This document shows, piece after piece, positions 21,378 through 49,423 of a DNA stretch of 64,000 nucleotides. Made by a program: the position numbers and the translations under genes. The notes beneath the pieces were generated by a model. That model was not told where the DNA came from. It was given only the letters and a program-made list of their open reading frames with translations, and made no database searches. The stretch is from an uncultured Verrucomicrobiota bacterium (GTDB lineage: Bacteria > Verrucomicrobiota > Kiritimatiellia > CAIKKV01 > CAITUY01). The first letter of the stretch is position 1, and every line of letters begins with the position of its first letter. The stretch spans positions 3,940-67,939 of the forward strand of contig CAZHRU010000003.1 of the NCBI GenBank assembly GCA_964535015.1. Direction: 5' to 3'.

Positions 21378-23247
21378 GGGGGGCCTTTGGGTTTGAGGTG
21401 TTTGTGTTATGGAGGCGAAGGATGGTTTCGACCACTTTGGCGGGGGAGAGGATATCGGTGTCGATCTGGTGGGGTATGGATCCGTACAGGGATTTTCGTT
21501 TTTCGAGCAACTCCCGGATACGCTGGAGGCGGTCCTGCTCCTCAAGGAGGGGGCGGTGGTTTGCCTTGGCGGTGCGCTTGAAGATGGTATCGGGCGAGGC
21601 AGTCAGGCAGACCATCAGGCCGGTGCGCTGGTAATCGCGGATGTTGTCGGGGTTAAGGACGACCCCGCCGCCACAACCGATCACCAGTCCCTGGCGGGCG
21701 GATAATTCCTTGGTGAGTTCGCGTTCCATGTTGCGGAAATGGGGTTCGCCCTCCTCGGCAAAGATACGGGTGATGGATTTGCCGGCTCGCGCCTCGATCA
21801 TGTGGTCCATGTCGATGAACTCCATGTTGAGTCGGTTGGCCAGTTGTTTGCCGACGGTGGTTTTTCCGGTTCCCATAAAGCCCATGAGGACGATGTTCTT
21901 TTGGGAAGGATTGATGGTTGATGGTTGATGGTTGATGGAAGAGGAGAAGACCTGGATGCCGTCGCGGAAGGTCATGACGGCGCGTCCCTGGAGGGACCAG
22001 CCTTCGAACGGGGTGTTGCGGGATTTCGAGGCAAAGGAGTCGGCATGGACAGTCCATTCGGTGTTCAGGTCGAGGAGGACCAGGTTGGCGGGTTGGCCCA
22101 GGGCGAGGCTGGGGGGTGGCAGGCCCAGGATGGCGGCGGGGCCGGTGGTCCAGCGGGCCACCCAGTCCGTCAGGGAAAGGAGTCCTTTGCGGACGAGGAG
22201 GGAGAAGGTGACGCCGACGGCGGTTTCGAGGCCGATGACGCCGAAGGGGGCCCCGGTGAAACCGCGGGCCTTGGAAGCGGCGGTGTGGGGCGCGTGATCG
22301 GTGGCGAAGCAGGCGATGGTGCCATCAACGAGGCCATGTATGAGTTCCTCGCGATCGGCGAAGGATCGCAGGGGTGGATTCATCTTGAAGGCATCCGCAC
22401 AGTCGGGGCGGACGTCGTCATCGGTCAGGGCGAGATGATGGGGGGTCAGTTCGGCAGAGACGTGGAGTCCGCGTTGTTGGGCGTTGCGGATCAGTCTGAC
22501 GGATTCACCGGCGGAGAGGTGTTGGATATGGATGGCGCCGCCGGTGGTTTCGGCCAGGCGGATATCGCGGGCGACGATGGCGGTCTCGGCTTCGGAGGGA
22601 ATGCCGGGCAGGTTGAGGGTTTGGGATCGGAGTCCATCATGCATGACGCCGTTGCCGGCGAGGCGCGGGTCGAGGGCGTGATCCATGAGCGGGTGACCGG
22701 TGGCGGCAGAGCGCCGCATGGCTTCCTCCATGAGGGAGGTATTGGTGACGGTGCAACCGTCGTCGGTAAAGGCCACGGCGCCGGCCCGGGCAAGCGCCTC
22801 GATATCGGTGAGGGCGTGGCCGGCGCGGTTGCGGGTGATGCAGGGGGCGGGCAGGACACGGGCGAGGTTGGCGGCGGCGGCGCGGGTGGCGAGGGTGGCG
22901 ATCTCGGCCGGGCAATCCATGGCGGGATTGGTGTTTGGCATGGCGACGATGGTGGTGAAGCCGCCTTGGACAGCGGCCCGGCAGGCGGTTTCGACGGATT
23001 CCGCCGCTTCGTTGCCGGGCTGGCGCAAATGGACATGCAGGTCAATCAGGCCCGGCACGGCCACAAGGTTGGTGCCGTCAATGACGGTACAGTCCGGGGG
23101 AAGGGAGGAATGGTTGATGGTTAATGGTTGATGGAGAATGGGGAGAGGGGCAAAGACGCCGTTTTGGATGAAGAGGTCGCCGATGAAATCCCGGTTTGAG
23201 ACGGGGTCCACGATGCGGGCGTTCTTGATATACCATGAAGGGTTCAT
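21370..23247 (-). CDS. pyrC: Dihydroorotase (class I amidohydrolase, PyrC-like) fused in-frame to a C-terminal shikimate kinase (AroK) domain. Alternatively, two genes whose separation was erased by a repeat insertion.
   Basis: DHOase motifs VPGLIDLHVHLRQPG and ATDHAPH. After ...AVMTFRDGIQVF the linker SSSINHQPSTINPSQK is encoded by (TTGATGG)4. AroK P-loop NIVLMGFMGTGKTTVG with no intervening stop. Real start MNPSWYIKNARIVDP at 23247. Confidence 0.7.
   Translation of the reverse strand: MNPSWYIKNARIVDPVSNRDFIGDLFIQNGVFAPLPILHQPLTINHSSLPPDCTVIDGTNLVAVPGLIDLHVHLRQPGNEAAESVETACRAAVQGGFTTIVAMPNTNPAMDCPAEIATLATRAAAANLARVLPAPCITRNRAGHALTDIEALARAGAVAFTDDGCTVTNTSLMEEAMRRSAATGHPLMDHALDPRLAGNGVMHDGLRSQTLNLPGIPSEAETAIVARDIRLAETTGGAIHIQHLSAGESVRLIRNAQQRGLHVSAELTPHHLALTDDDVRPDCADAFKMNPPLRSFADREELIHGLVDGTIACFATDHAPHTAASKARGFTGAPFGVIGLETAVGVTFSLLVRKGLLSLTDWVARWTTGPAAILGLPPPSLALGQPANLVLLDLNTEWTVHADSFASKSRNTPFEGWSLQGRAVMTFRDGIQVFSSSINHQPSTINPSQKNIVLMGFMGTGKTTVGKQLANRLNMEFIDMDHMIEARAGKSITRIFAEEGEPHFRNMERELTKELSARQGLVIGCGGGVVLNPDNIRDYQRTGLMVCLTASPDTIFKRTAKANHRPLLEEQDRLQRIRELLEKRKSLYGSIPHQIDTDILSPAKVVETILRLHNTNTSNPKAPHE
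21911..21938. repeat. Tandem heptanucleotide repeat (TTGATGG)x4, located in-frame at the PyrC/AroK junction.
   Basis: Direct reading: ttgatggttgatggttgatggttgatgg. Confidence 0.9.
23109..23141. repeat. Degenerate heptamer tract (aatgg ttgatgg ttaatgg ttgatgg agaatgg) inserted in-frame in the N-terminal loop of PyrC.
   Basis: Encodes the extra PILHQPLTINHSS segment between conserved DHOase beta-strands. Same family as the 21911 and 26127 tracts. Confidence 0.85.
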
Positions 23248-24328: not shown

Positions 24329-26137
24329 ATGAGCAAGCAGAAATTACCGATCAAAGACATCCTGATAATCGCGGCGCTGTTTGGCGCCATGTTGGCCTGG
24401 GGGCCTGTGTACCAGAAGTTCCTGGCACCGCCGCCCGTGGCGGTGACGCCCGGCGTTGTCACGGAGGCCACCACTAATGCGGTGCCGCCGCCAGTCGAGG
24501 TAGTGGCGCCAGTCGTCGTCAAGGCGCAACCGGCGGTGGTGGATGCGCCGGTGTTGCAGGCGGCCACCACTGCGCGGAGGCCCGAGGAAACCTTCGTCAT
24601 CAGCAACCAGTTTATTCATGCGACCCTGACGTCGCGCGGGGGCGGCGTGGTGTCCGTTGAGTTGCCGTCTTTTTCGGTGACCAAGAAGGATCTGCGTCCG
24701 GTGGTGTTGGATTTCAAACGGTTCCCGGCACTGGCGTACGAAGGCTGGGAAGGATTGGATGTCGGCGCTGATTATTCGATCACGGTGCTTTCCAACGGTG
24801 TGGCGGCCCGGTTGGAAGCGACGCGGGCGGACGGGGTCCGGTTGGAGCGCCATATTGCGCTGGGCGAACGTTACCTGCTGACGGTGCAGGATCGTCTGAT
24901 CAACACGGCTGGCGAGGTGCGGGCGGTACCGGCGGTGGCGATGACATTGGGCGACATGGAGATGCTCGAGGGTGAGGAGCGGATGACCGGGGTGGAGTTT
25001 CTGGGGATTGACTCCCTGCCGTCGGCGGGTGGCGGAGGGGTGCGGCACTGGATGAGCAAGCGGTGGTTTTCGGATGATCTGACGGTGGCGGACTATTTTC
25101 AGGAGGAACCGATTCGCGGTCACGGTTGCATTGGCCGGCCGAAGATGACCAAACCGCTGCCACACCGCGTCCGGGAGCGGATCAGCCAGAACATGGATTG
25201 GGTGGCGGCGAGGAACAAGTATTTCGTGCAGATCCTGGCGCCGCAAGGCGGGGCGGTGGGGTGTGATCTGATTGCCGACCGGGAGGTGGATCCCACGGAG
25301 GATCCCGCGCAGAGCCGGTCATGGGCCAGTGTGGCGGTGCCTTTGCGCGTGGCGGGTGCGGTGCGGTTCCCTGAACGGGTGCTGGCGCCGGGCGAGGCGG
25401 CGGTGCGTTCGCTGGAGTACTATGTCGGGCCGAAGGAGCTTTCCACCATCAGGCCGCTGGGTCGTCACATGAAGGAAGTGATGGACTTCGGAACGTTGAA
25501 GTGGGTTTGCGAGATTCTGGTTGTGGCGCTGACCTGGCTATACGCGGTGATTCCCAACTACGGGGTGGCGATCATCCTGTTGACCCTGATCGTGCGGGTG
25601 ATCTTCTGGCCCCTGACGCACAAGGGTACGGAGAGTATGAAGCGGATGCAGGAACTGCAGCCGAAGGTGAAGGCGTTGCAGGATCAATACCGCGACAAGC
25701 CGCAGAAGCTTCAGCAGGAGACCATGGCGTTATACCGGGAAAACAAGGTCAATCCGCTGGGCGGGTGTCTGCCGATGCTGATCCAGATTCCGGTGTTCTT
25801 TGCTTTGTTCAATGTGCTGCGCAGCGGGATTGAGTTGCGTTATGCGGGGTTCCTGTGGATTGGCGACTTGAGCGCCGCGGAGAACCTGTTGGCGGGGGTG
25901 TTGCCTTTCCCGATCAACATCCTGCCGCTCGTGATGGCGGCCACGCAGGCGTGGCAGCAGCATCTGACGCCTTCGGCGGGCGACCCGGCGCAACAGAAGA
26001 TGATGATGTTCATGCCGGTGATCATGTTGCTGTTCCTGTACTCCATGCCGTCAGGGCTGGTGTTGTACTGGACGGCCAACCAGGTGATGATGATCGTCCA
26101 GTTGTTATGGCAGCGGCGGATGAAGAAGAATGGTTAA
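24329..26137 (+). CDS. yidC: Membrane protein insertase YidC.
   Basis: N-terminal TM segment. Conserved C-terminal insertase core YGVAIILLTLIVRVIFWPLT...NPLGGCLPMLIQIPVFFALF. The stop TAA lies inside a heptamer tract. Confidence 0.9.
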   Translation: MSKQKLPIKDILIIAALFGAMLAWGPVYQKFLAPPPVAVTPGVVTEATTNAVPPPVEVVAPVVVKAQPAVVDAPVLQAATTARRPEETFVISNQFIHATLTSRGGGVVSVELPSFSVTKKDLRPVVLDFKRFPALAYEGWEGLDVGADYSITVLSNGVAARLEATRADGVRLERHIALGERYLLTVQDRLINTAGEVRAVPAVAMTLGDMEMLEGEERMTGVEFLGIDSLPSAGGGGVRHWMSKRWFSDDLTVADYFQEEPIRGHGCIGRPKMTKPLPHRVRERISQNMDWVAARNKYFVQILAPQGGAVGCDLIADREVDPTEDPAQSRSWASVAVPLRVAGAVRFPERVLAPGEAAVRSLEYYVGPKELSTIRPLGRHMKEVMDFGTLKWVCEILVVALTWLYAVIPNYGVAIILLTLIVRVIFWPLTHKGTESMKRMQELQPKVKALQDQYRDKPQKLQQETMALYRENKVNPLGGCLPMLIQIPVFFALFNVLRSGIELRYAGFLWIGDLSAAENLLAGVLPFPINILPLVMAATQAWQQHLTPSAGDPAQQKMMMFMPVIMLLFLYSMPSGLVLYWTANQVMMIVQLLWQRRMKKNG

Positions 26138-26154
26138 TGGTTCATGGTTGATGG
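26127..26154. repeat. Heptamer tract agaatgg ttaatgg ttcatgg ttgatgg between yidC and plsY.
   Basis: Same (W)T(N)ATGG heptamer family as the tracts in pyrC. Contains the yidC stop and the first in-frame ATG of the plsY ORF. Confidence 0.85.
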
Positions 26155-26161
26155 GGGAAAT

Positions 26162-26830
26162 ATGAACTGCTTCTGTTGTGGGCAATCGGGGTGGGTGATC
26201 GGGTTTGGCGTGGTGGCGTACCTGGTGGGGGCGATTCCGTTCGGGTTGTTGATTTCGCGGGCGAAGGGTGTGGACATCCGCAAGGTGGGGAGCGGGAACA
26301 TTGGCGCCACGAATGTGTTCCGGGCCGTCAGCAAGCCGCTGGGGATCCTGACGTTTGTGGCAGACGCCCTGAAGGGGTGGGTGCCCGCCTGGGTGTTTCC
26401 GCTGGTGGTGGCGAGGGTCGTGGAGGCGGGGGTTCCCGGAGAACTCGGGTTGGCCTATGGGGCGTTGGCGATCATGGGGCATACCTGGCCGGTGTATCTC
26501 GGGTTCAAGGGGGGGAAGGGCGTGGCCACGAGCGCCGGGGCGCTGATCGGGATTGCTCCGGCGGCGACGGGAGTTGGACTACTCTGCTGGGTGTTGGTGT
26601 TTGCGGTGTCGCGCTATGTGTCCCTGGCATCCATGGTGGCGGCGGCAACGGTGGCGGTGGCCGCCTGGGTTATGTATCGCGGAGCGGGTTTGGGATTGCC
26701 GGTGGCGTTGACGGTGCTGTCGGCATTGATTGTCTGGCGTCACAAGGCGAATATCCGGCGTCTGTTGGATGGCACGGAGCACCGGTTTTCCAAGAAGAAA
26801 TCAGCGGCGGCGGATCCTGCGGCGCAGTGA
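26162..26830 (+). CDS. plsY: Glycerol-3-phosphate acyltransferase PlsY.
   Basis: Family segment GSGNIGATNVFRAVSKPLGILTFVADALKG. Multi-TM protein. Start 26144 or 26162. Confidence 0.85.
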   Translation: MNCFCCGQSGWVIGFGVVAYLVGAIPFGLLISRAKGVDIRKVGSGNIGATNVFRAVSKPLGILTFVADALKGWVPAWVFPLVVARVVEAGVPGELGLAYGALAIMGHTWPVYLGFKGGKGVATSAGALIGIAPAATGVGLLCWVLVFAVSRYVSLASMVAAATVAVAAWVMYRGAGLGLPVALTVLSALIVWRHKANIRRLLDGTEHRFSKKKSAAADPAAQ

Positions 26831-39484: not shown

Positions 39485-39898
39485 ATGAAGAACATTTGCA
39501 ATACGTTGGCGGTGCTGGCGGTGATGACCGTTCTGGTGATGTGTTTTGCCTGTGCTAAACGGGAACCGGTGAGTCATTTCGTTATTGTGCCGCGGAGCGG
39601 GCAGACTGAAATTGCCGCGGCGGATATTGAGAAATTGCGGGTAACATTGGACGCGGTCGGCGAACATTACAAGATGACGAAAAAGCAGTCCGGGCAGGCG
39701 GGGATCATCCGTTACTATGCACCCAACGACGACTACGAGATCGGGTTCTATGCCAAACGCGAGGCGTCGTACCTGAAGGTGTATGCGATTCCGATGACGC
39801 CGTCGGTTGCCGGTTCGAAGAACTTTGTGGCCTTCCGGCAGAACCTGGCGAATGTACTGTCGGGGGCGTTTCCGGGCCGGGTCTCCGTGGTGAAGTAG
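39485..39898 (+). CDS. Hypothetical lipoprotein.
   Basis: Signal/lipobox MKNICNTLAVLAVMTVLVMCFAC. Lower GC than the surroundings. No recognisable domain. Confidence 0.5.
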   Translation: MKNICNTLAVLAVMTVLVMCFACAKREPVSHFVIVPRSGQTEIAAADIEKLRVTLDAVGEHYKMTKKQSGQAGIIRYYAPNDDYEIGFYAKREASYLKVYAIPMTPSVAGSKNFVAFRQNLANVLSGAFPGRVSVVK

Positions 39899-39933
39899 CA
39901 GGCGAAGACGGTGGTGATGGGCAGGTCCGTTGC

Positions 39934-39980
39934 GGACGTTCAACGTTTGCCTCCACCGGGGCGAGCCCGGTGGCCGGCTG
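39934..39980. repeat. Hairpin-containing intergenic repeat (GACGTTCAACGTTTGCCTCCACCGG-loop-CCGGTGG), related to the 48474-48658 array.
   Basis: 25 of 26 nt identical to 48609-48634. Perfect 8-bp stem CCACCGGG/CCCGGTGG. Confidence 0.8.
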
Positions 39981-40063
39981 CCGTCATGTCGCCAAGACTC
40001 AGAGATGCGCCCCCGGGAATCATCCTGTTGACGGATGCCTGCAAATGTGCGTATTAATGATCT

Positions 40064-42904
40064 ATGAAGCATGGCCTATTTGTCGCGGGTTGTTGTGCGC
40101 TAGTGATGGTCGCCCTACTGGCCGGGGGATGCGCCTCGACGGCGATCAAAGGGACTCCGTTCTACACAGCCGTGGATGAGAAGCCGGCGGGGCCGCCGGA
40201 GGATCGTATCTGGGCCTGGCCCTTGGTCTACTATCGCGATCCGGCGCTTTCGATCCTGTGGCCCATCTTCGAGAAGAACGACCAATGGCTTGCCGTAAGG
40301 CCGGTTTTCTCGATCTACGGGCTGGACCGTGGCAAGCATCAGTACAATGTGCTGTGGCCGATCGCCCAGTGGGATTGGGAGACGGGCAACCATCGCGTCT
40401 TTCCCTATTTCTGGGGGGCTAATTACCGGGCGTTGTTCCCCTTGTATTGGCACTTCAATCACCCGTTGAACGGGTACGGAACCGATACGCTTTTCCCGTT
40501 GTGGTATTACACCCGGAACGCGGGGCAGTACAGTTTCTGGGCGGTGGGTCCGGTGTTCCACTCCAAGAATCGCGGGGGTGAAACCGGCTGGCACGTGTGG
40601 CCGGTGACGGGGCATTACGCGGGTTCGGATCACAGTTACCGGTTCTTTGCCTGGCCGCTGGCCCACCAGTGGCGCGGGCACGGGGACCGGGGTGCGGATA
40701 CGATCATTCCGTTATTCTATCGTGGATGGGGCCCAGACAGCCGCACGTTTATCAGTCCGTTGTGGATGACGCGCTCCAATGAAGGGGAAACGTGGCGATG
40801 TCTGCCACCCCTGTTCTACGAGCAATCCGGCAAAGGGGCGTCGCGGTTCCTTTCCCTGCCCTGGTCCTATGGTGCCGAGCGGGACGGCAGTGCGTGGCAT
40901 CTCGCTTTTCCTTTCTACTTCGATAAAGTTGCTTCCAATCGCGTCACCCGTCTGACGCCTTTGGGCGGGTCGAGGACGGTGGGTGAACGAACGGAGTGGG
41001 GTGTTGTGCCGGTGCTTTCGTGGGGGACAACGACACCCACGAGCCATTCCACCTGGGTCGCGGCGGGCCTGGCCCATCATTCGCAGGATGGCGCCAGTCG
41101 GTCACACCATGTATTGCCCCTGTACTACTCCAGCAGTGATTCGGATAGTTCCACCTTCATTTCCATTCCCTATAGTCAGCGGCGGACCGTTAGTGGCGCC
41201 CAATGGGATCTGGCGTTCCCATTGGTGTACCGGTACCGGTCGCCGGAGGCGAACCGGTGGATAACTCCGTTGGCGGCGGGCGGCGGGACGACCGATGGGC
41301 GCGAACGCTGGCATGCCATTCTGCCCCTGTACTATAGTCAGCAAGACGGGCAGGGGAGTTCGCTGGTCACCCTGGCGGGGGGATATCACCGCGATCCATC
41401 CGGGACGCGGTGGAATGCGTGGCCGTTGCTGACCTGGCGGACGGAGGACAAGGAGGGTTCCGATTTCTGGGCACTGGCACCCCTGATTCATGCCCGGCAC
41501 GAAGCGGGATATTCCACACACCATGTGTTACCCGTTTACTACTGGAACAGTCGTACGGACAGTCTTGTTTCCCTGCTGGCCGCGCGTTGGCAGACAGCGG
41601 CATCCAATACGGTGACGTTGGTCCCGCCGGCGTTGAGTTGGAAGGTGACGTCGACAAACCGGTCGGATCTCTGGTTGGCTGGCGGACTGGCCAGGGCCAG
41701 TTGGGGGGCGAAGCCGGGGCCCCATCATGTCGTTCCCTTGTATTACCGTGACCGGGAACGCGACACCTTCATTTCGCCGGTTTTTGCTCAATGGGAGGCC
41801 AGTGATGAGTCGCGGGTTACTGTGATTCCGCCCCTATTGGGTGCGGGAAGTTCATCACCGCAGAACAGGGATCTGTGGTTTCTGGCGGGATTGGGCAAGG
41901 CCAGTTGGGGTGAACATCCGGGGGCCCGCTATCTGGTTCCCCTTTTCTATGAGAACCCGCAGACGGGCTCGTTTATTTCGCCGTTCTTTACCCGGTCCAC
42001 TGCCGGAACGCGCGACACCCGTTTCTACCCGCCGCTCCTGTCTCTTGACATCACCGACGGATCGCAGCGCGACATCTGGGGGTTGGCCGGCCTCGCGCAT
42101 TACTCCGGCGATTCAGTGACCCGCACCAGCAGTGGCTACCTTCTGCCGCTTTTCTATTATGACTCCACCAACACGCTTCTCACTCCGCTCTTCGGACGTC
42201 ATCGCCAAAATGAGAACGGGTTCTTCTATCCGCTCACGCCGCTGGCTGGTGTCCGCACGGGGCAACGGTCGGGGGGGTGGTTGTTTCCGCTTTTTTCGCA
42301 CACGCGCCAGCGGGAAAGTGGTGACATCAACGGCATGGTTCTTTGGGGTCCGTACTGGCGTGATCATGTCCGCAAGGGGGCGTTTCTGTTTCCGTTCTTC
42401 TATCACCAACGTGATCTTGCGCCACTGAACAGCAAAGAGAGCGTCAATCGCAAGACGTATGTCTTTCCGACGTTCTGGAAGCGGACGTTGGCCTACACGG
42501 AGGTCGGGTCCAATTCAAGAAAGCGGATTCTGGATACGAAGAATATGTTTGTGCCGTTTTGGGCGCACACGGAGACAGGGGTTTTGGGGAAGGCGCCTGA
42601 TGTGGCTGAGACGTCCGTCCTGCTGGGGGCCTGGAACAGCCGGAAAGAGAAAGTGGCGGCGCCGGGTTCAGATCAGACCGTTACGCAATGCCGGAAGCGG
42701 CTCCTGTGGTGGCTCTGGCGATATGACCGGAACGGCGCGGATATGGCGATGGATATATTTCCGGGGATCAGCATTGACCGGAAGGGCGACGGATTCAAGA
42801 AGACGGCCTTCTTCTACCGCCTCTACCGCAACGAGGTAACGCCCGACGGCAAGCGCAAGATGGATATCCTGTTCATTCCGATCCTGCGCCCCCGCCAGGG
42901 GTAG
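40064..42904 (+). CDS. Large repeat lipoprotein (946 aa) built of ~15-18 tandem W/Y/P-rich modules; function unknown.
   Basis: Lipobox LLAGGCAS. Recurrent module ...DLW.LAGL[AG]+ASWG..PG.[HRY][HY]+VPL[FY]Y......[ST]FISP.F... (HHVLPLYY, HHVVPLYY, RYLVPLFY, GYLLPLFY, AILPLYY ...). Confidence 0.6.
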   Translation: MKHGLFVAGCCALVMVALLAGGCASTAIKGTPFYTAVDEKPAGPPEDRIWAWPLVYYRDPALSILWPIFEKNDQWLAVRPVFSIYGLDRGKHQYNVLWPIAQWDWETGNHRVFPYFWGANYRALFPLYWHFNHPLNGYGTDTLFPLWYYTRNAGQYSFWAVGPVFHSKNRGGETGWHVWPVTGHYAGSDHSYRFFAWPLAHQWRGHGDRGADTIIPLFYRGWGPDSRTFISPLWMTRSNEGETWRCLPPLFYEQSGKGASRFLSLPWSYGAERDGSAWHLAFPFYFDKVASNRVTRLTPLGGSRTVGERTEWGVVPVLSWGTTTPTSHSTWVAAGLAHHSQDGASRSHHVLPLYYSSSDSDSSTFISIPYSQRRTVSGAQWDLAFPLVYRYRSPEANRWITPLAAGGGTTDGRERWHAILPLYYSQQDGQGSSLVTLAGGYHRDPSGTRWNAWPLLTWRTEDKEGSDFWALAPLIHARHEAGYSTHHVLPVYYWNSRTDSLVSLLAARWQTAASNTVTLVPPALSWKVTSTNRSDLWLAGGLARASWGAKPGPHHVVPLYYRDRERDTFISPVFAQWEASDESRVTVIPPLLGAGSSSPQNRDLWFLAGLGKASWGEHPGARYLVPLFYENPQTGSFISPFFTRSTAGTRDTRFYPPLLSLDITDGSQRDIWGLAGLAHYSGDSVTRTSSGYLLPLFYYDSTNTLLTPLFGRHRQNENGFFYPLTPLAGVRTGQRSGGWLFPLFSHTRQRESGDINGMVLWGPYWRDHVRKGAFLFPFFYHQRDLAPLNSKESVNRKTYVFPTFWKRTLAYTEVGSNSRKRILDTKNMFVPFWAHTETGVLGKAPDVAETSVLLGAWNSRKEKVAAPGSDQTVTQCRKRLLWWLWRYDRNGADMAMDIFPGISIDRKGDGFKKTAFFYRLYRNEVTPDGKRKMDILFIPILRPRQG

Positions 42905-42926
42905 CGGTCTGATGCAGGCCACAGGC

Positions 42927-42984
42927 GGCATTCGAAAGAATGCCGCTACCGACCTTGACGTAACGGAATCCTTTCGGATTCCGC
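42927..42984. repeat. Double-hairpin intergenic element, copy 1 (GGCATTC-GAAA-GAATGCC ... GCTACCGA ... CGGAATCC-TTTC-GGATTCCG).
   Basis: Two perfect stem-loops with GAAA/TTTC tetraloops, sitting between convergent gene ends. Near-identical copy at 45465-45527. Confidence 0.8.
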
Positions 42985-43089
42985 CTGCAGTTTGGTTTCC
43001 CCCAGGGACAGTTTCCCCCAGGGATAGTCCCTGTTGAACTGAATTGGCAAACCGGGCCAAACTACAGGGTTCGCCCTCAGGCGAGCCGA

Positions 43090-44172
43090 TCACAAGCGGT
43101 TGAGGATGGTGCTGCCGCGTTCGAAGAACCACTGGAGTGTATCGTGTTCGACCTCGGGCGGGATCGAGTGGTCGGAAGCGACGATCACGCCGCTTCCCCC
43201 CTTCAACACGGGAATGATTTTCCGGTTGAGTTCCTCGTCAATCAGTGCTCGATCGTTGCTCGCGAGAATCCGGATGTCAATGTTGCCGCAGAAGGTGATG
43301 CGGTCCCCGTACTGTTTTGCCAGTCGCGGCATATCCATACCCGCCTTGACCTCCATGGCCTGCAGGCAGTCCATGCCTGCAGAGATCAGGCCGGGCACCA
43401 GGGGTTCGACGAACCCGCAGGAATGAACGACGACCTTCAATCCCTTGGAGTGTGCGTAGTCGAAGAGAAGTTTGTGGCCGGGCATGACCAGTTCCTCGTA
43501 CATCGCGGGCGACATGAAGGGTTTCTCCTTGAACCCCATGTCCTCGAAGAACCAGATGAAATCGGGAGTTCCTTCTTCGGCGAAGAGGACCTCCAGATGC
43601 ATGATGGTCATGCGGGCATAGGTCATGACCATGTCCAGGACCCAGTCGGGGTCCAGGCCCATGCCCATGAGCATGTACTCATGACCGCAGACCGGGTGCA
43701 TTTGCTCGAAGGGCGCCACACCGTGCCAGCAGAATGCGCGGCCTTCTGCCGCGGCCAAGGCCTTTTGGTTCCGGTACCCTTCAAAGGGGATGCGGCGGCG
43801 ATCCACCTTCAGGAGGTGCGGTTTGATCATGGATTCCCAGGGGCCCCGTTCCTGGACGGCGAAGTCCACATGTTCCGGTGTTCCGGAGCGTGCCTTCCAC
43901 CAGCGCAAGGTGGCGCCGTTGCCGTTAAGCACCAGTTTGGTTTCGGCGGTTTCCTCCAGAAGTTTGTCAGTGAAGTCCAGGTCGGCAGTGCTGTTCAGCC
44001 AGCCGCCGGAACGCCAACTCATGTTGAAATGGGTGACGGCATCTTCGTTGGTCCGTAGTTTGCCTTGGGCCGCGTACTTCACCCGGGTCTCTCCCCACAA
44101 TGAATCCCCGTAGGGCAACGCATCCACGGGTTTGCGGTTCAACGTATTCAACAAGCGCGTTTTGTGTGTCAT
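43090..44172 (-). CDS. Uroporphyrinogen decarboxylase (URO-D) family protein (MtaA/CmuA-like methyltransferase or decarboxylase homologue).
   Basis: Start MTHKTRLLNTLNRKPVDALPYGDSLWGE at 44172. URO-D-like core, and the family-like segment ...HSCGFVEPLVPGLISAGMDCLQ.... Confidence 0.55.
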   Translation of the reverse strand: MTHKTRLLNTLNRKPVDALPYGDSLWGETRVKYAAQGKLRTNEDAVTHFNMSWRSGGWLNSTADLDFTDKLLEETAETKLVLNGNGATLRWWKARSGTPEHVDFAVQERGPWESMIKPHLLKVDRRRIPFEGYRNQKALAAAEGRAFCWHGVAPFEQMHPVCGHEYMLMGMGLDPDWVLDMVMTYARMTIMHLEVLFAEEGTPDFIWFFEDMGFKEKPFMSPAMYEELVMPGHKLLFDYAHSKGLKVVVHSCGFVEPLVPGLISAGMDCLQAMEVKAGMDMPRLAKQYGDRITFCGNIDIRILASNDRALIDEELNRKIIPVLKGGSGVIVASDHSIPPEVEHDTLQWFFERGSTILNRL

Positions 44173-44290
44173 GGGTATTTTCCTGCTGATGACAATTTCG
44201 ACAGGGGGTAAATGGTGCAAGTTGCCGGCATCATTTGCAAGTCCTGACATCATTCCCGGAGCATGTTTGGGTTTTGGCATCCACAGTGTT

Positions 44291-44388
44291 TGGCGTCACG
44301 CCGTGACGTCCTACAGAATCCAGAATGTGTAGGACCGCACGGTGTGCGGTCGCAATCCAGAAGGGGTGGGGCCGCACGGTGTGCGGTC
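44291..44388. promoter_or_regulatory. Divergent promoter region carrying three palindromes: GTCACG-c-CGTGAC and two copies of CCGCACGG-T-GTGCGG(TC).
   Basis: Palindromes at 44293-44309, 44333-44351 and 44371-44388, ~40 bp apart. CAGAATCCAGAATG motif at 44314-44327. Confidence 0.5.
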
Positions 44389-44513
44389 GGAGTTTGCGTA
44401 TGGCCGCGCTGAGACGTGGAGAGGCGCGTGGGGGATTCGTGAAAAGTCGTGACTAATCCTGCGGAAACCGTTAAACAACCCGCGCTACACATCATGGAAA
44501 GGGTAGAATTCAC

Positions 44514-45320
44514 ATGCTGACGTTGCTTATATCGTTGTTGGCGATGGTGGGGGTATGGGTTGGGTTGCGGCATGGGGTCGCGATGGTGAATGGGTGGAGT
44601 ATTGTGGTGGCGGTTACCGTGGGGGTGGGGATCTACATCGGGACCATGTTGTTGCTTCGGCGCAAAGTCGGGGCCCTGATGACAGCCGTGCAGAACCGCA
44701 TCACCAGCCGGAATGCCATCCTCATGCGGAAGTACCAGCAACTGGGCAGTCGGGGCGGGGACCCCAAGCGGCTGATGGACCAGGCGCGCCGGGAGCAGGA
44801 ATCCATTTTGGCCGAGGCCCTGGAGGCGACCCGCCAGTTGGATCCCTACTGCAAATGGAGCCCGTTGCTTGACCGGCAGATCAATTCCATCCGCGTCCAG
44901 TTCCTGTTCCAGTTGAAGAAGTACGACGAGGTTGACCGGCTTCTACCGAAGGCCCTGCTGACCGAGCCCGTTCTGGTATGCATGAAGATGTGCCGACAAT
45001 ACCAGCGCGGCGCCGAGGCCGACCTCGAGAAGACGTACAACAAGTATCGAAAGAAATTCAAACTGGATGCCGCCATCATCTATGCGACGTATGCGTGGAT
45101 GTTGCTCAGGAAGAAGCAAGGCGACAAGGCCCGGCAAGTCCTGCTGGATGGCAAGACGGCGACGGAGAACGACATTCTGGAGAAGAACTGGGAACACTTG
45201 TCCAACGACAGGCCGAGTCATTTCTCCAATGCCGGGTTTGGCGAGTCCTGGTATGCCCTGTATCTGGAAGAGCCCAAGCAACCCAAGCCGAGGGTGGAGC
45301 GGCGTATCCGGAGGTGGTAG
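44514..45320 (+). CDS. Hypothetical membrane protein (two N-terminal TM helices plus a helical cytoplasmic domain).
   Basis: N-terminal TM-like segment MLTLLISLLAMVGVWVGL...IVVAVTVGVGIYIGTMLLL. No known catalytic motif. Confidence 0.45.
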   Translation: MLTLLISLLAMVGVWVGLRHGVAMVNGWSIVVAVTVGVGIYIGTMLLLRRKVGALMTAVQNRITSRNAILMRKYQQLGSRGGDPKRLMDQARREQESILAEALEATRQLDPYCKWSPLLDRQINSIRVQFLFQLKKYDEVDRLLPKALLTEPVLVCMKMCRQYQRGAEADLEKTYNKYRKKFKLDAAIIYATYAWMLLRKKQGDKARQVLLDGKTATENDILEKNWEHLSNDRPSHFSNAGFGESWYALYLEEPKQPKPRVERRIRRW

Positions 45321-45464
45321 GGGGGGGGCTGTTCCCTGGGTGAAAGGTCCATCAGGATTTTTCTCCGGGGACAGACCCTGTTGAACCCGCTGTTCGCGGC
45401 GTCGCAGGAGCTCCGCCCTCCAGAAGGCGTGTTTGGATTTCTCCCGGGGGCACGGCACTGGTGC

Positions 45465-45527
45465 GGCATTCGAAAGAATGCCGCTACCGAACCTGACATA
45501 GCGGAATCTGAAAGGATTCCGCTACCG
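45465..45527. repeat. Double-hairpin intergenic element, copy 2.
   Basis: ggcattcgaaagaatgccgctaccgaacctgacatagcggaatctgaaaggattccgctaccga. Again located between convergent gene ends. Confidence 0.8.
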
Positions 45528-45556
45528 ATTGTGCTTTATTACGGGTTCCCCGGGTA

Positions 45557-46345
45557 TTACGGGAAGTTGATATCCAACTGGGTCGTGAACATGTTGGAAC
45601 CCGCGAGACTGGGTTCTTCCCACATGTCGTACCCGAAGATCACGGAGACGTTCTTGGAGAAGGCCCAGGCCGCGCCGAAACTCAGGCCGCTCAGGGCGTT
45701 GTTCCCGCCCTGATAATCCACGGCGACCCACAGTTTGTCCGAGATCTCGCTCACGGTGCGGTCCCACGACAGAAGGATGCCGTCGGCGGCTTCGTTGCCG
45801 TTCTTATCCAGCAACACATCGCCGTTCCCGCTGTAGTAGCCGGCCGAAAAGCGGCCGAGGGACGGAATGGCACCGAAGGCCGGCATTGTCTTGGCCGCGA
45901 GACCATAGACGATGTTCTGGTCAGTTCGCGTGGGGCTGTTCTCCTTCGAATGGGTGCCGAAGTTGAACCCGCCTACCGCGAGGGCCGGTGAGTAGGGGCA
46001 CAAGGCATCCTCGGCCACGCCCACCTTGGCGTTGAAATAGAACGGGTGGTCGTCATAGGCCGTTCCATTCACCAGATAGTCGGCGCCGACTTCCGCCTTG
46101 ATGGTTTCGAACGGAAGGACGCCGACGGTGATGCCGACATCATAGACGTTGGGGTCCCGCTCGCCCGCGGTGAACCGTCCGTTGTCCGAGGACCGGACGT
46201 AGTTGTCCAATCCGAGATGCCAGACGTTAAACGGTTGAATGTCCGTGGAGGGAATCCAGATCTGGGTTGAAGGGGTTGCCATGCCCAGATTGGCCGAGCC
46301 TGAACACAGTACGCCTGCGATGAGTCCTGCGATTGTCTTTTTCAT
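45557..46345 (-). CDS. Outer-membrane beta-barrel (porin-like) protein, downstream of glnK.
   Basis: Signal peptide MKKTIAGLIAGVLCSGSA. Alternating-hydrophobic beta-strands. C-terminal ...QLDINFP. Start at 46345. Confidence 0.5.
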   Translation of the reverse strand: MKKTIAGLIAGVLCSGSANLGMATPSTQIWIPSTDIQPFNVWHLGLDNYVRSSDNGRFTAGERDPNVYDVGITVGVLPFETIKAEVGADYLVNGTAYDDHPFYFNAKVGVAEDALCPYSPALAVGGFNFGTHSKENSPTRTDQNIVYGLAAKTMPAFGAIPSLGRFSAGYYSGNGDVLLDKNGNEAADGILLSWDRTVSEISDKLWVAVDYQGGNNALSGLSFGAAWAFSKNVSVIFGYDMWEEPSLAGSNMFTTQLDINFP

Positions 46346-46434
46346 AGTACACTTACCTTTCTTTTGTTTGTTTTGTCTGGTTATGAGTTGCGGGATGGCG
46401 CACCACCCGGGGCGCCATCCCATCCGGGGAATGA

Positions 46435-46776
46435 TTATCCGATGGCGGGACCTCCTGTTTCTCCGGTCCGGATGCGGATGCATTCGGCAAGGTCCAGGAC
46501 GAAGATCTTTCCGTCCCCGACTTTCCCTGTTCGGGCCGCTCCGGTGATGGCCTCGATTGTCGGCTTCACGAAGTCGTCGTTCACCGCGATCTCCAGTTTC
46601 ACTTTCTTCAGCAAGGTCCCGGCCTCCTTATGACTACGGTAGACTTGGGCGATACCGCCCTGCCGGCCGCGTCCCATGACGCTGGTCACGGTGACCAGAT
46701 GGATCTGGTTGGCGGTCAACTGTTCCAGGACTTCTTCCATCCGGTCCGGTTGAATAATGGCTACGATGTATTTCAT
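46435..46776 (-). CDS. glnK: Nitrogen regulatory protein P-II (GlnK/GlnB).
   Basis: Family segment MKYIVAIIQPDRMEEV...TGAARTGKVGDGKIFV...IRIRTGE. Start 46776; the track ORF is extended. Confidence 0.9.
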   Translation of the reverse strand: MKYIVAIIQPDRMEEVLEQLTANQIHLVTVTSVMGRGRQGGIAQVYRSHKEAGTLLKKVKLEIAVNDDFVKPTIEAITGAARTGKVGDGKIFVLDLAECIRIRTGETGGPAIG

Positions 46777-46819
46777 GTTATTTTGTTCCTTCCGTTCTTT
46801 GTTGTATTCATTAGGGGAC

Positions 46820-48184
46820 TCAATCCAGCATTGTGTAACCGGTTTCACGGTGATCCGTGAGATCCAGGCCGATCCGCTCGGATTGTTCGGTGGCGCGCAG
46901 GCCGATCGTCTTATCCACGAGTTTCAGCAGGACAAAACTGGCCACGGCGGAATATGCCACGGTGACGGCGACGGCCTTGAGTTGGATCAGGAACTGGCCG
47001 GGGTTTCCGTAGAACAGGCCGTTGGCGCCCGCGCTATTGACGGTGGTGGTTGCCCACAACCCGGTGGCTAGGGCGCCCCAGATTCCGCCCACGCAGTGGA
47101 CGCCGAAGGCATCCAGGGCGTCATCGTATCCGAGTTTCTCCTTCAGGACGCTGACGAACAGGTAGCAGATGACGCCTGCGCCGATGCCGATGCCGATGGC
47201 ACCGCCGACGTTGACGAAGCCCGCGGCGGGGGTAATGGCAACCAGGCCGGCCACCGCGCCGGAGATCATGCCCAGCATGGTCATGCGCCGGTTGAACGCC
47301 ACATCCATCAGTGCCCAGGCCAGACCCGCCACGGCGGAAGCCACATGCGTCACCACGAAGGCATTGCCCGCCAAGCCATTGGCGCCGAGCGCGCTTCCGG
47401 CGTTGAACCCGTACCAGCCGAACCACAGCAGGGATGCGCCCATGACGGCGAACGGCAGGTTATGGGGCGGCGAGATTTTGTGGGGGTGCCCCAGGCGGCG
47501 TCCCAGCACCAGGGCGGCGACCAGGGCCGCGATACCGGCGTTGATATGGACCACGGTGCCGCCGGCAAAGTCCAGTGCGCCCATTTTACGGAGGAATCCG
47601 CCGACGCCCCACACCCAGTGGCACACGGGGTCATAGACGAGGGTGGACCAGAGCACCATGAAGACGGCGAAGGCGGCGAACTTCATACGTTCGGCAAAGG
47701 CGCCGATGATCAGGCCGGGAGTGATGACGGCAAACATCATTTGAAAGACCATGAAGACCTGGTGCGGTATGGTGCCGGCGTAGTCGGCATTGGGTTCCAT
47801 TCCCACCATCTTCAGCATCGCCCAATCCAGATTGCCGATTACTCCCTTGATGTCAGGGCCGAACGAGAGACTATACCCGAACAGTACCCATTGCAGGCTG
47901 ACGGCGCACATCAGGAAGAAGCACTGCATCAGGATCGAGAGCACGTTCTTCTTTCTAACCAGGCCCCCGTAGAACAGGGCGAGGCCCGGGATGGTCATCA
48001 GCATCACCAGAGCGGTGCTGACGAGGACCCAGGCGGTATCGCCCGAGTTCACGGCGGAGGCGACAACTGCAACCGGCGCCGCCGTTGTTGCGGCGGTCTC
48101 ATCCGCCAGAGCGGCGCTTGTGCCCGCCAGTGCCAATCCCGTTCCCATTAGTAACGTCATCCATCCTCTCGTTTTCACCTTCAT
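46820..48184 (-). CDS. amt: Ammonium transporter (Amt/MEP family).
   Basis: GGAGGA RBS, then MKVKTRGW... at 48184. Signal peptide plus ~11 TM helices. Family segments ...GGTVVHINAGIAALV... and ...DDALDAFGVHCVGGIWG.... glnK lies immediately downstream. Confidence 0.9.
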   Translation of the reverse strand: MKVKTRGWMTLLMGTGLALAGTSAALADETAATTAAPVAVVASAVNSGDTAWVLVSTALVMLMTIPGLALFYGGLVRKKNVLSILMQCFFLMCAVSLQWVLFGYSLSFGPDIKGVIGNLDWAMLKMVGMEPNADYAGTIPHQVFMVFQMMFAVITPGLIIGAFAERMKFAAFAVFMVLWSTLVYDPVCHWVWGVGGFLRKMGALDFAGGTVVHINAGIAALVAALVLGRRLGHPHKISPPHNLPFAVMGASLLWFGWYGFNAGSALGANGLAGNAFVVTHVASAVAGLAWALMDVAFNRRMTMLGMISGAVAGLVAITPAAGFVNVGGAIGIGIGAGVICYLFVSVLKEKLGYDDALDAFGVHCVGGIWGALATGLWATTTVNSAGANGLFYGNPGQFLIQLKAVAVTVAYSAVASFVLLKLVDKTIGLRATEQSERIGLDLTDHRETGYTMLD

Positions 48185-48473
48185 TCCTCCTTCTTCTGTT
48201 GAGCTTCTCATTGTGTGACTCCAACCATTGTTGTCTGGGTCTATATCATGATGTGTGCCAACCCTTGTCCTGTGCAGGTGTCGCAAGTCGCAAGTGGCTT
48301 GTGAGAAATGACATACAGATAATATTATTGTGGGGCGCCAGGCGGGTCGCTTGAATTACTATGATTCAATTATGTAGGTGAGATTGGCAAACATACAGAA
48401 CTGTAACTCATTTACCTGTATCGAACACGGTGAAGGTTTGCATGGATTTCTCTCCTGGGGCAGACCGTGCTGA

Positions 48474-48658
48474 ACATGTCAGGGATGCCGTGGATGTTCA
48501 CCGTTTGCCTCCACCGGCGCAAGGCCGGTGGGCGGCGAAGTCACGGGGATGCCGGTGGGCGGCGAAGTCACGGGGATGCCGGTGGGCGGCGAAGTCACGG
48601 GGATGCCGTGGACGTTCAACGTTTGCCTCCACCGGCGCAAGGCCGGTGGGCGGCGAAG
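48474..48658. repeat. Complex tandem repeat: 27-bp unit GGTGGGCGGCGAAGTCACGGGGATGCC x3 (plus partial copies) interleaved with two 37-bp hairpin units (...GTTTGCCTCCACCGGC-GCAAG-GCCGGTGG...).
   Basis: Direct reading of 48482-48658. 8-bp perfect stems with GCAAG loops. Intergenic, between the amt and tetR promoters. The overlapping track ORFs 48430..48726 and 48467..48733 are repeat artefacts. Confidence 0.85.
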
Positions 48659-48766
48659 GCATCTGGGCAGGTGTGGGGTGGTTTGGATTGCAAAGAGGTG
48701 TTGACGGGCATGGCGAAAAAGATTAATGAGTAAGCACTTACTTATTCAGGAGAGAGGGGTTTCAGA

Positions 48767-49423
48767 GTGGCCAGGCCGATTTCCATCCAGACCGACGTGA
48801 TCCTGAGAGCCGCCCGCACGATGTTCATGCGGGATGGATACCGGGCCAGTACCGCCCGGATTGCCCGGGAGGCCGGGGTTTCGGAGGGGTCGGTCTTCAA
48901 GCATTTCAAAAGCAAGGCCAACCTGTTCCTGACGGCGATGGAAGTGGAGGCGGGTGATCCGGCGTGGGAGACGCATCTGCTGGAGGGCGCCGGGCGTGTG
49001 GACCCGCAGGAGGCGCTTGAATCGGCCGGGTTGCAGCTTCTCAAGCAATTGCGGCTGACGTTGCCGCGGTTGATGATGGTCAACGCGAGCGGGGTGACGA
49101 TCCCGAATCACCATGTGCCCGGTGAGCGACCCTGTCCGCTCCAGAAGATGGATGTGTTGCGCCGGTATTTCACGGCCGAAGTCCGTTGCGGGCGGCTGGC
49201 GATGGACTCTCCCCAGATCCAGGCGCATTTGTTTATCGGGGCGTTGGCGCATTACGCCTGGTGCGAGACGTTGTTCGGGCACCGGTCGGGTTCCCCGGCG
49301 TCGTATGTGCGGGGGCTCGTGGATACGATTTTGAGGGCGACTCGGGCGCCGTTGAGCGGGCGCAAGGGGCCGCGGTTGTCCTGTGGAACGATGCAAGGAA
49401 AGAAGACAAGAGGGATCAAGTGA
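48767..49423 (+). CDS. TetR/AcrR-family transcriptional regulator.
   Basis: N-terminal HTH ILRAARTMFMRDGYRASTARIAREAGVSEGSVFKHFKSK. Confidence 0.85.
   Translation: MARPISIQTDVILRAARTMFMRDGYRASTARIAREAGVSEGSVFKHFKSKANLFLTAMEVEAGDPAWETHLLEGAGRVDPQEALESAGLQLLKQLRLTLPRLMMVNASGVTIPNHHVPGERPCPLQKMDVLRRYFTAEVRCGRLAMDSPQIQAHLFIGALAHYAWCETLFGHRSGSPASYVRGLVDTILRATRAPLSGRKGPRLSCGTMQGKKTRGIK

Follow-up and report, generated by a model that had tools for sequence, protein, structure and literature searches.

Repetitive extragenic palindromes (REPs) are abundant in many bacterial genomes, where RAYT transposases copy them. REPs of the GTAG superfamily, to which those of E. coli and Pseudomonas belong, were surveyed by Di Nocera, De Gregorio & Rocco (2013, PMC3733652). 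GTAG REPs are short palindromes of 20-40 bp with a stem of 6-13 bp, a loop of 2-4 nt and an unpaired terminal GTAG or its variants GTGG and GTAA. Their subfamilies differ by complementary stem changes, the units form dimers, and they lie downstream of ORFs at convergent or unidirectional junctions, where the TAG of the tag is near stop codons or supplies them. The superfamily includes families of the PVC superphylum (Planctomycetes, Verrucomicrobia, Chlamydiae), in Opitutus terrae and Rhodopirellula baltica. A typical GTAG REP family has tens to hundreds of dispersed copies per genome. In REPIN-RAYT systems (Bertels & Rainey 2011, PMC3116915; Nunvar et al. 2010, PMC2817692), two inverted REPs with a short conserved spacer recur as a whole doublet, and REPs flank single-copy RAYT genes.

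The window analysed here, a 64-kb stretch of DNA of a Kiritimatiellia bacterium of the PVC superphylum, contains two copies of a ~60-nt double-hairpin element, REP-A, which shares with GTAG REPs the palindromic form, the tag and its variants, the complementary stem changes, the dimers, the placement downstream of ORFs and the closeness of TAG to stop codons. It differs in its host, the class Kiritimatiellia being absent from the survey. The comparison of REP-A, with its stem CGGNATNC, to the 24 families of the survey was by the features described there. The element is of the ordinary GTAG REP kind, in a lineage without earlier cataloguing of such REPs, and this Kiritimatiellia lineage thus joins their hosts. 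It is quite probable that the double hairpins are doublets of GTAG-tagged REP units, that by homology they are dispersed by a RAYT, and that any role at transcript 3' ends is a side effect.

The two copies occupy 42925-42984 and 45463-45528, with 85% identity and a 28-nt exact core in both, and were recovered by a repeat search of the window as family D6 (42925-42984 against 45463-45522, 60 nt, 85% identity). The 26-mer GGCATTCGAAAGAATGCCGCTACCGA occurred exactly twice in the window and in 0 of 100 dinucleotide-preserving shuffles. The repeat is real and beyond chance, as the initial annotation had proposed from a ~60-nt element of ~85% identity at two sites. Its sites stood; its limits did not, since the 5' side reaches a shared GC and copy 2 reaches CTACCGA at 45522-45528. 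A full scan of the window with covariance model R1 found no degenerate REP-A copies elsewhere, leaving four units at two sites 2.5 kb apart. The copy number in this genome appears low, and from these two sites a large population of REPs is no more than a candidate for this lineage. The window held four perfect GTAG-tagged hairpins (three REP-A and one of a second family, REP-B), all within 42.9-45.5 kb, compared with ca. 0.25 expected by chance according to our own arithmetic. The doublets were strictly conserved across five further samples of the species; in line with this conservation, the neighbouring porin-like protein was matched only on short same-species Logan/ENA contigs. The species occurs in SRR24858483, SRR21424289, SRR12261224, SRR25935583 and ERZ4201063.

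Table 1 Features of the REP-A neighbourhood (window coordinates; R1, covariance-model score)
Feature	Position	Strand	Sequence and remarks
Lipoprotein-like gene, 946 aa	40064-42904	+	No Pfam match; stop TAG 42902-42904 within GGTAGCGG; doublet 1 begins 21 nt downstream of the stop codon
REP-A unit 1, copy 1	42925-42952	-	TCGGTAG-CGGCATTC-TTTC-GAATGCCG-C; 9-bp stem, 42925-42933/42938-42946; tag from 42952 to 42946; R1 44.8 bits, E 4e-9
Doublet spacer, copy 1	42953-42959		CCTTGAC, between tags; conserved as ACCTGAC in copy 2 and CCATGAC in L004
REP-A unit 2, copy 1	42960-42984	+	GTAA (degenerate GTAG)-CGGAATCC-TTTC-GGATTCCG-C; inverted relative to unit 1; R1 35.8 bits (+ strand)
Motif 2 copy, 5' half duplicated	42993-43039	+	TTTCCCCCAGGGACAG / TTTCCCCCAGGGATAGTCCCTGTTGAAC
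URO-D family gene	43090-44172	-	Convergent with the 946-aa gene; stop 106 nt from doublet 1
REP-B tandem pair	44329-44389	+	Second GTAG-tagged family (D17); divergent intergenic region between the doublets
Membrane protein gene, 268 aa	44514-45320	+	Stop 143 nt upstream of doublet 2
Motif 2, best copy	45355-45386	+	GGATTTTTCTCCGGGGACAGACCCTGTTGAAC; second 5' half at 45435-45453
REP-A unit 1, copy 2	45463-45490	-	28 nt identical to unit 1 of copy 1; R1 42.3 bits
Spacer, copy 2	45491-45500		ACCTGAC + ATA; ATA + G45501 = ATAG
REP-A unit 2, copy 2	45501-45528	-	TCGGTAG-CGGAATCC-TTTC-AGATTCCG-C; direct relative to unit 1; R1 38.8 bits
Porin-like gene, 262 aa	45557-46345	-	Last of an amtB / P-II / porin run; stop 29-30 nt from doublet 2
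Motif 2, third copy	48444-48475	+	Abuts repeat D1; no REP-A doublet beside it

The REP-A unit is ca. 28 nt long and consists of TCGGTAG, CGG(C/A)AT(T/C)C, TTTC and the complementary arm, that is, a conserved single-stranded foot, a G+C-rich stem of 8-9 bp and a 4-nt loop. In the window, a 9-bp stem with a 4-nt loop was found in all four units, and each reads (T)CGGTAG-stem-TTTC-stem in the orientation of the tag, GAAA being the opposite strand. The pattern described by eye as a "double GNRA hairpin" can be resolved by aligning the units on the GTAG foot; on the + strand that description is right for copy 2 but not for copy 1, where the loop of hairpin 2 is UUUC. Hairpin 2 seems flipped between the copies because the units run in different tag orientations: copy 1 is an inverted pair with the tags facing each other, as in REPINs, and copy 2 is a direct pair. 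The GTAG is unpaired and perfect in three of the four units; the fourth has GTAA, and its counterpart in a related genome (L004, below) has GTAG there. The extended foot TCGGTAG is also common to units of Planctomycetota. In copy 2, the stem of unit 2 has a single mismatch, C/A, which reads as a T-G wobble on the + strand, and the tag of this unit is GTGG in the strain represented by contig L099.

In copy 1 and in L004, the doublet is an inverted REP pair with a short conserved spacer and recurs as a whole, as in REPINs; copy 2 is the tandem variant, a head-tail dimer of a sort uncommon among described REPs, and the ATAG at the end of its spacer is a relic of an inward-facing tag. Unlike REPINs, the REP-A doublet is a heterodimer with different stems and forms two hairpins, not one long one, with DNA parameters. 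The fold z-scores of both hairpins were -6.2 to -7.9 as RNA and -6.2 to -8.5 as DNA. Only RNA parameters, and only for the - strand of copy 1, gave one long REPIN hairpin as the minimum-energy fold.

The two stems of a doublet differ by compensatory changes, and such changes, for which the initial annotation had suggested a covariation analysis, recurred across the family. Among 29 aligned units (26 distinct), double changes were present at three of the nine stem pairs (A-T<->C-G, T-A<->C-G and one C-G<->G-C), with 11 cells changed on both sides; the units had been chosen by their near-perfect stems, which inflates the percentage paired and does not create double changes. The covariation score was reached by 0 of 500 shuffles, and slid controls collapsed. 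Judging from this alignment, structure is conserved among the stems of the family and sequence is not, and the complementary substitutions at three pairs correspond to those that separate subfamilies of GTAG REPs. The loops vary freely (TTTC, GCAA, GCCA, GTAA, GTGA, GTGC and GTAC). Many Planctomycetota units have G-N-N-A loops; with the tag as reference, G-N-N-A lies on one strand in Kiritimatiellia and on the other in Planctomycetota.

Both doublets lie between convergent genes, according to the ORFs and to independent gene calls on L099 (99.4% identical), which agrees with the placement given in the initial annotation and with the extragenic, downstream-of-ORF position of GTAG REPs. With respect to the nearest gene, the two copies are oriented differently. 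Most family members sit 4-31 nt past a stop codon, and some are found upstream of genes or beside RAYT genes. Empty orthologous sites were sought at five URO-D homologs of relatives, none of which proved syntenic with the window; the loci of three of these homologs, 68 kb from three other related genomes, gave no REP-A unit in a covariance-model scan.

A scan of a genome collection returned 33 loci, compared with ca. 17 expected by chance (our own arithmetic), and ca. 11 of them were true family members. In a Kiritimatiellia MAG from Lake Mendota, the strict pattern matched only two loci: L004, the same doublet including the spacer, with 96.6% identity over 59 nt, and L021, a singleton unit. 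The flanks of both showed no homology to the window and are non-syntenic. Units of the form GGTAG-CGGAATTC-NNNN-GAATTCCG recurred in Planctomycetota (Gemmataceae and Pirellulales contigs) as head-head, tail-tail and tandem dimers. The stems CGGCATTC and CGGAATCC were also found together, with a GTGA loop, in an inverted doublet on an IMG/VR contig (L126). A scan of JGI metagenomes for units of the hairpin-1 type gave 65 loci, of which almost all were coincidental matches within coding sequence; the real units were L048, L081 and L096 alone, which have a different loop, and the scan thus contained no GAAA-loop copy of the hairpin.

The Planctomycetota relatives link the unit to transposases: as in REPIN-RAYT systems, related REPs flank single-copy RAYT genes there (L018, L105, L106 and L108). 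At the Gemmataceae locus L018, a gene whose product is homologous to rba11751, a RAYT of R. baltica (phmmer E 4.5e-36), ends 17 nt before a doublet of the GGTAG-tagged units. RAYTs of the rba11751 family in Rhodopirellula sp. P2, a Gemmataceae MAG and Roseimaritima have GTAG REP doublets on both sides, with stems that vary by lineage. The window and all loci were translated in six frames, and their ORFs were searched with an HMM built from published RAYT sequences (PMC3733652, Additional file 5); matches came from Planctomycetota loci only, with no RAYT in the window or at any Kiritimatiellia locus. As judged from these loci, the RAYT association of REP-A relatives is one of Planctomycetota only. 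The REP/MITE-like alternative raised in the initial annotation was thus upheld by the GTAG-tagged palindromes, the copies at unrelated loci elsewhere, the compensatory stems and the RAYT-adjacent relatives.

By homology, the single-stranded DNA hairpin with its GTAG foot would be the substrate of an rba11751-type RAYT (TnpA-REP, a Y1/HUH transposase), which would nick and rejoin DNA and so disperse and maintain the doublets in intergenic DNA. The doublets sit shortly after stop codons, between convergent genes, where insertions would be tolerated. From the REP literature, the stable hairpins probably form the 3' ends of both converging transcripts, where they may hold back exonucleases and block the polymerase, as a side effect and not as the reason for their existence. 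On this analysis, any 3'-end function would be a secondary effect of the REP type.

The foot TCGGTAG and the stem CGGNATNC are shared by Planctomycetota and Kiritimatiellia, and even the stem pair CGGCATTC and CGGAATCC in one doublet is common to both phyla. This sharing would therefore point to co-inheritance or inter-phylum transfer, and we advance only tentatively, as a rather unlikely extension, that REP-A stems from a very old cross-phylum lineage, either co-inherited with an rba11751-type RAYT since early PVC bacteria or the outcome of a REPIN-RAYT that moved between phyla. On this reading, REP-A in Kiritimatiellia might now survive in few copies and lack its transposase, kept as an insulator of the 3' ends of convergent genes. 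The near-identical recognition hairpin in the two groups offers a small handle on REP-RAYT persistence or transfer between phyla.

It is possible, if somewhat doubtful, that the doublets are bidirectional terminators or 3'-end stabilisers selected by the host and that their likeness arose by local copying or convergence rather than mobility. Like Rho-independent terminators, REP-A is a G+C-rich hairpin just past a stop codon that can fold on both strands, where it is very stable; both doublets are at convergent junctions, the nearer stop codon being 21 and 30 nt away, their strict conservation in the five other samples would suit a host function, and REPs elsewhere act on mRNA 3' ends (PMC3733652). 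However, the stems lack a T/U tract after them on both strands, the sequence after the hairpins being TACCGA (+ strand) and CTGTGG or ACCAGT (- strand), and a terminator scan had no match at either doublet, which speaks against a canonical intrinsic terminator. REP-A also departs from such terminators in its paired arrangement and its conserved GTAG foot; neither the single-stranded TCGGTAG nor the 7-nt spacer plays a part in termination. Moreover, other gene ends in the window lack the element, the same doublet is present at unrelated loci of another genome, and the family also has members that precede genes or adjoin RAYT genes.

It is improbable that a single intergenic hairpin cassette was duplicated locally, or copied by gene conversion, within a 9-kb neighbourhood rich in repeats and without a transposase. 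The copies are just 2.5 kb apart, other short repeats (motif 2, REP-B and D1) lie alongside and are confined to 39.9-48.7 kb, and no RAYT was seen in the window or the Kiritimatiellia loci, all of which would fit such an origin. The flanks of the copies are nevertheless unrelated outside the 60 nt, the near-identical doublet (96.6%) is on non-syntenic contigs of a different genome, and the family of the unit is tied to RAYT genes in Planctomycetota.

A small structured ncRNA or 3'-UTR RNA element with functional GNRA tetraloops (tetraloop-receptor or protein-binding motifs), which the initial annotation had also entertained, is highly improbable despite the GAAA loops on G-C-rich stems of the + strand, the compensatory stem changes and the G-N-N-A loops of many Planctomycetota units, because hairpin 2 of copy 1 has the UUUC loop, the second unit is inverted between the copies, the orientation relative to genes differs, loops vary freely with G-N-N-A on opposite strands relative to the tag in the two phyla, no promoter-like site or terminator is nearby, a DNA hairpin would be equally expected to show palindrome covariation, and Rfam 15 gave no match at the gathering score in the whole window and none at E <= 1 in 39800-48800. 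For annotation, such sites should be masked as repeats and not called as sRNAs or terminators. Separately, a CRISPR, IS200/IS605 ends and a transcription-factor operator were excluded because of the size and spacing of the units, because no tnpA lies next to them and because they sit at the 3' ends of genes.

The second motif reported in the initial annotation exists as repeat family D9 (motif 2; 43012-43039, 45359-45386 and 48448-48475, with identities down to 68-82%), but it does not accompany a REP-A element in every case, as no REP adjoins the third copy. As a hairpin it had no significant fold (z-scores -1.6 to +0.4), and as a promoter it has no -10 element. In one copy only, GGGGACAG of motif 2 fits the GGGGWSAS consensus reported for TIRYT-associated TIRs. 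The two REP-B units are GTAG-GACCGCAC-GGT-GTGCGGTC and GTGG-GGCCGCAC-GGT-GTGCGGTC. Between 45321 and 45556, the intergenic DNA is a patchwork of several short repeats, in the order motif 2, motif 3, a half motif 2 and the REP doublet; it resembles in this the BIMEs of E. coli, which are mosaics of REPs and conserved linkers, whereas its own linkers have no relation to the E. coli ones.

The repeated element of about 60 nt was found at 42925-42984 and 45463-45522 with the sequences described in the initial annotation, and the 60-nt pair showed 85% identity (repeat family D6 in the repeat search of the window). The first 28 nt, GCGGCATTCGAAAGAATGCCGCTACCGA, are the same in both copies, and the window contains exactly two occurrences of a 26-mer core that was absent from all 100 shuffles. 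Relative to shuffled controls, both copies were strongly folded as RNA (z -6.2 to -7.9) and as DNA (z -6.2 to -8.5). The element consists of two units of ca. 28 nt (REP-A), not one single unit. When a covariance model of REP-A was run unfiltered over the 64 kb, no units were found beyond the four at the two sites, and the same model found zero REP-A units in three related genomes, of which it covered 68 kb. The placement of both copies between convergent genes was borne out by ORFs, by Pfam and by genes called independently on contig L099, which is 99.4% identical. Upstream of the first doublet, GGTAGCGG at 42900-42907 encloses the TAG stop of the 946-aa gene; this octamer equals the REP head, lies 18 nt before the doublet, and may represent an eroded third REP whose remnant provides the gene with its stop codon. 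Nine consecutive G (45320-45328) begin at the final base of the stop codon of the 268-aa gene; strain L099 has eight, which makes the run length-polymorphic.

Features of the window and a match in a viral-database contig
Feature	Position	Strand	Remark
946-aa lipoprotein-like gene	40064-42904	+	left neighbour of copy 1
URO-D family gene	43090-44172	-	right neighbour of copy 1
268-aa membrane protein gene	44514-45320	+	left neighbour of copy 2
Porin-like gene	45557-46345	-	right neighbour of copy 2; last in amtB / P-II / porin run
REP-B, second GTAG-tagged REP family, tandem pair	44329-44389	+	conserved in L099
D1, GTTCAMCGTTTGCCTCCACCGG-GCGCAA-GGCCGGTGG, hairpin with GCAA loop	39924-39985, 48482-48543, 48600-48661	+	each upstream of + strand genes
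D2, (GGTTGAT)n-like purine-rich repeat, three copies	21903-21950, 23099-23146, 26119-26166		repeat search
L126 match	position 8168 of reverse complement (+ strand 1847-1871)	-	IMG/VR scan

Read on the TCGGTAG strand, all four units have the order (T)CGGTAG, CGG(C/A)AT(T/C)C, TTTC, complementary arm and C, and the "GAAA tetraloop" is the complement of TTTC. In copy 1, hairpin 2 reads UUUC on the + strand because this unit is inverted, and it carries a degenerate GTAA tag on its left side (a perfect GTAG in its counterpart in L004, a locus of a Lake Mendota Kiritimatiellia MAG); therefore, copy 1 is an inverted doublet whose tags point towards each other. In copy 2, an identical CTACCGA follows each hairpin; this copy is a tandem doublet in which the inward tag survives as the relic ATAG. 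Two compensated substitutions, C-G to A-T and T-A to C-G, distinguish the two stems of a doublet. In Di Nocera et al. 2013 (PMC3733652), a GTAG-tagged REP is defined by a palindrome and an unpaired GTAG foot. The proposal of a REP/MITE-like module agrees with this architecture and with the occurrence of relatives in other genomes. The window elements were shown to be GTAG-tagged REP doublets of a PVC-wide family, and the element, which the initial annotation had correctly observed, is of an ordinary class.

Relatives were searched with GCGGNAT-N8-ATNCCGCTACCGA in one genome per species, which gave 33 loci against a chance expectation of ca. 17 (calculated from 18 fixed bases over 596 Gb and two strands); about two thirds of them look like chance matches. 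Two loci came from the one Lake Mendota MAG: L004 has the entire doublet including the spacer (96.6% identity over 59 nt), and L021 has one lone unit 6 nt after a stop codon. Outside the REP, neither showed further similarity with the window except one short motif, the 26-nt repeat described below. The form GGTAG-CGGAATTC-NNNN-GAATTCCG was present in nine Planctomycetota MAG loci (Gemmataceae, Pirellulales and Planctomycetaceae) as head-head, tail-tail and tandem dimers, at up to three sites per 8 kb. This close match of the recognition hairpin between Kiritimatiellia and Planctomycetota is of modest interest. A metagenome scan for hairpin-1-type units gave nearly all chance matches, the exceptions being inverted doublets on three soil contigs (L048, 1428-1497; L081, 1438-1507; L096, 445-520), whose palindrome reaches into flanking arms CTGTTGAAAA / TTTTCAACAG. 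Additional units were found among the viral contigs of IMG/VR; L126 (UViG 3300018003_000027) has one doublet with exactly the two stems of the window, CGGCATTC and CGGAATCC, and the loop GTGA. This contig, classed as viral, has three REP sites; it is probably a piece of bacterial DNA or a prophage whose host bears REPs. The closest named homologs of the URO-D-like protein were from Kiritimatiellia, Lentisphaerae and Verrucomicrobia MAGs (76-79% identity). The window species was present in five public runs (99.4-100% nucleotide identity) with both doublets conserved, and the sole change within a doublet was GTAG to GTGG in one tag.

REP transposases (RAYTs) were sought in six-frame ORFs with the queries of Additional file 5 of PMC3733652. 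L018 begins with an ORF that is homologous to Rhodopirellula baltica RAYT rba11751 (E 4.5e-36) and ends 17 nt upstream of a GGTAG-CGGAATTC-GCAA-GAATTCCG doublet. Among the 863 database relatives of this family, the 120 matches listed had 57% or more identity to the query, all organism-named ones among them were Planctomycetota, and some were annotated as RayT. Three more RAYTs of the family had GTAG REP doublets on both sides with lineage-specific stems (CCGGATTC in Rhodopirellula sp. P2, CCGAAGTC in a Gemmataceae MAG and TGGATCTT in Roseimaritima), as is usual for REPtrons. The window and all Kiritimatiellia loci searched yielded no RAYT. Judging from homology, an rba11751-type RAYT would generate and maintain the window doublets, acting on the single-stranded hairpin and foot. 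Just downstream of the RAYT of Rhodopirellula sp. P2 (CP118225; L105, 10591-11100), inverted REP doublets recur in four copies with a 147-nt period; since the intervening sequence is also conserved, this is a tandemly amplified REPIN-containing block.

As for the suggested bidirectional terminator, both strands lack a T-run after the hairpins, and a terminator scan gave no match at either element. By analogy with the REP literature, doublets lodged just past stop codons probably act as 3'-end hairpins of both converging transcripts. The covariation analysis that had been proposed, performed on 29 tag-oriented units (26 distinct), revealed compensatory changes, with both sides altered in three of the nine stem pairs (11 cells). 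The score was equalled in 0 of 500 shuffles, and pairing was lost when the partners were slid. As the units were chosen for a near-perfect stem, the figure of 95% paired is inflated; this choice does not account for the double changes. The loops vary freely in the family (TTTC, GCAA, GCCA, GTAA, GTGA, GTGC and GTAC), and G-N-N-A stands on opposite strands in Kiritimatiellia and Planctomycetota when the units are oriented by the tag. These sequence patterns favour a palindrome at the DNA level over an RNA specific to one strand. A small structured RNA with conserved tetraloops, the remaining suggestion, is not supported, given the variable loops and the strand flip between phyla, and Rfam had zero matches to the element.

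The second motif, GGATTTYTCTCC-GGGGACAGACCCTGTTGAAC, was real, with three copies and partial ones, all on the + strand. Its reported association with the element held beside each doublet and failed for the copy at 48444, where there is no REP. Its fold was not significant, and none was found outside the window species in the related loci searched. The arms of the soil doublets resemble its 3' end (CTGTTGAAC), a likeness that may be accidental or reflect a flanking module in common. Of the three copies, only the best one, with GGGGACAG at 45367-45374, fits GGGGWSAS; Di Nocera et al. (PMC3733652) report this consensus in terminal inverted repeats flanking TIRYT transposase genes, and a TIRYT gene is absent from the window. 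The 26-nt GGCGTCGCAGGAGCTCCGCCCTCCAG (45398-45423), 40 nt upstream of doublet 2, is a third short repeat that accompanies the REPs; it recurs in L004 (1674-1699; 24/26) about 90 nt from the doublet. The REP-B units, GTAG-GACCGCAC-GGT-GTGCGGTC and GTGG-GGCCGCAC-GGT-GTGCGGTC, are located in the intergenic stretch from which the URO-D-like and 268-aa genes diverge. In the stretch of 39.9-48.7 kb, motif 2, the 26-nt repeat, REP-B and D1 together form a mosaic of short repeats that is BIME-like. A 27-nt sequence present in three exact tandem copies (48524-48608) is bracketed by two D1 copies.
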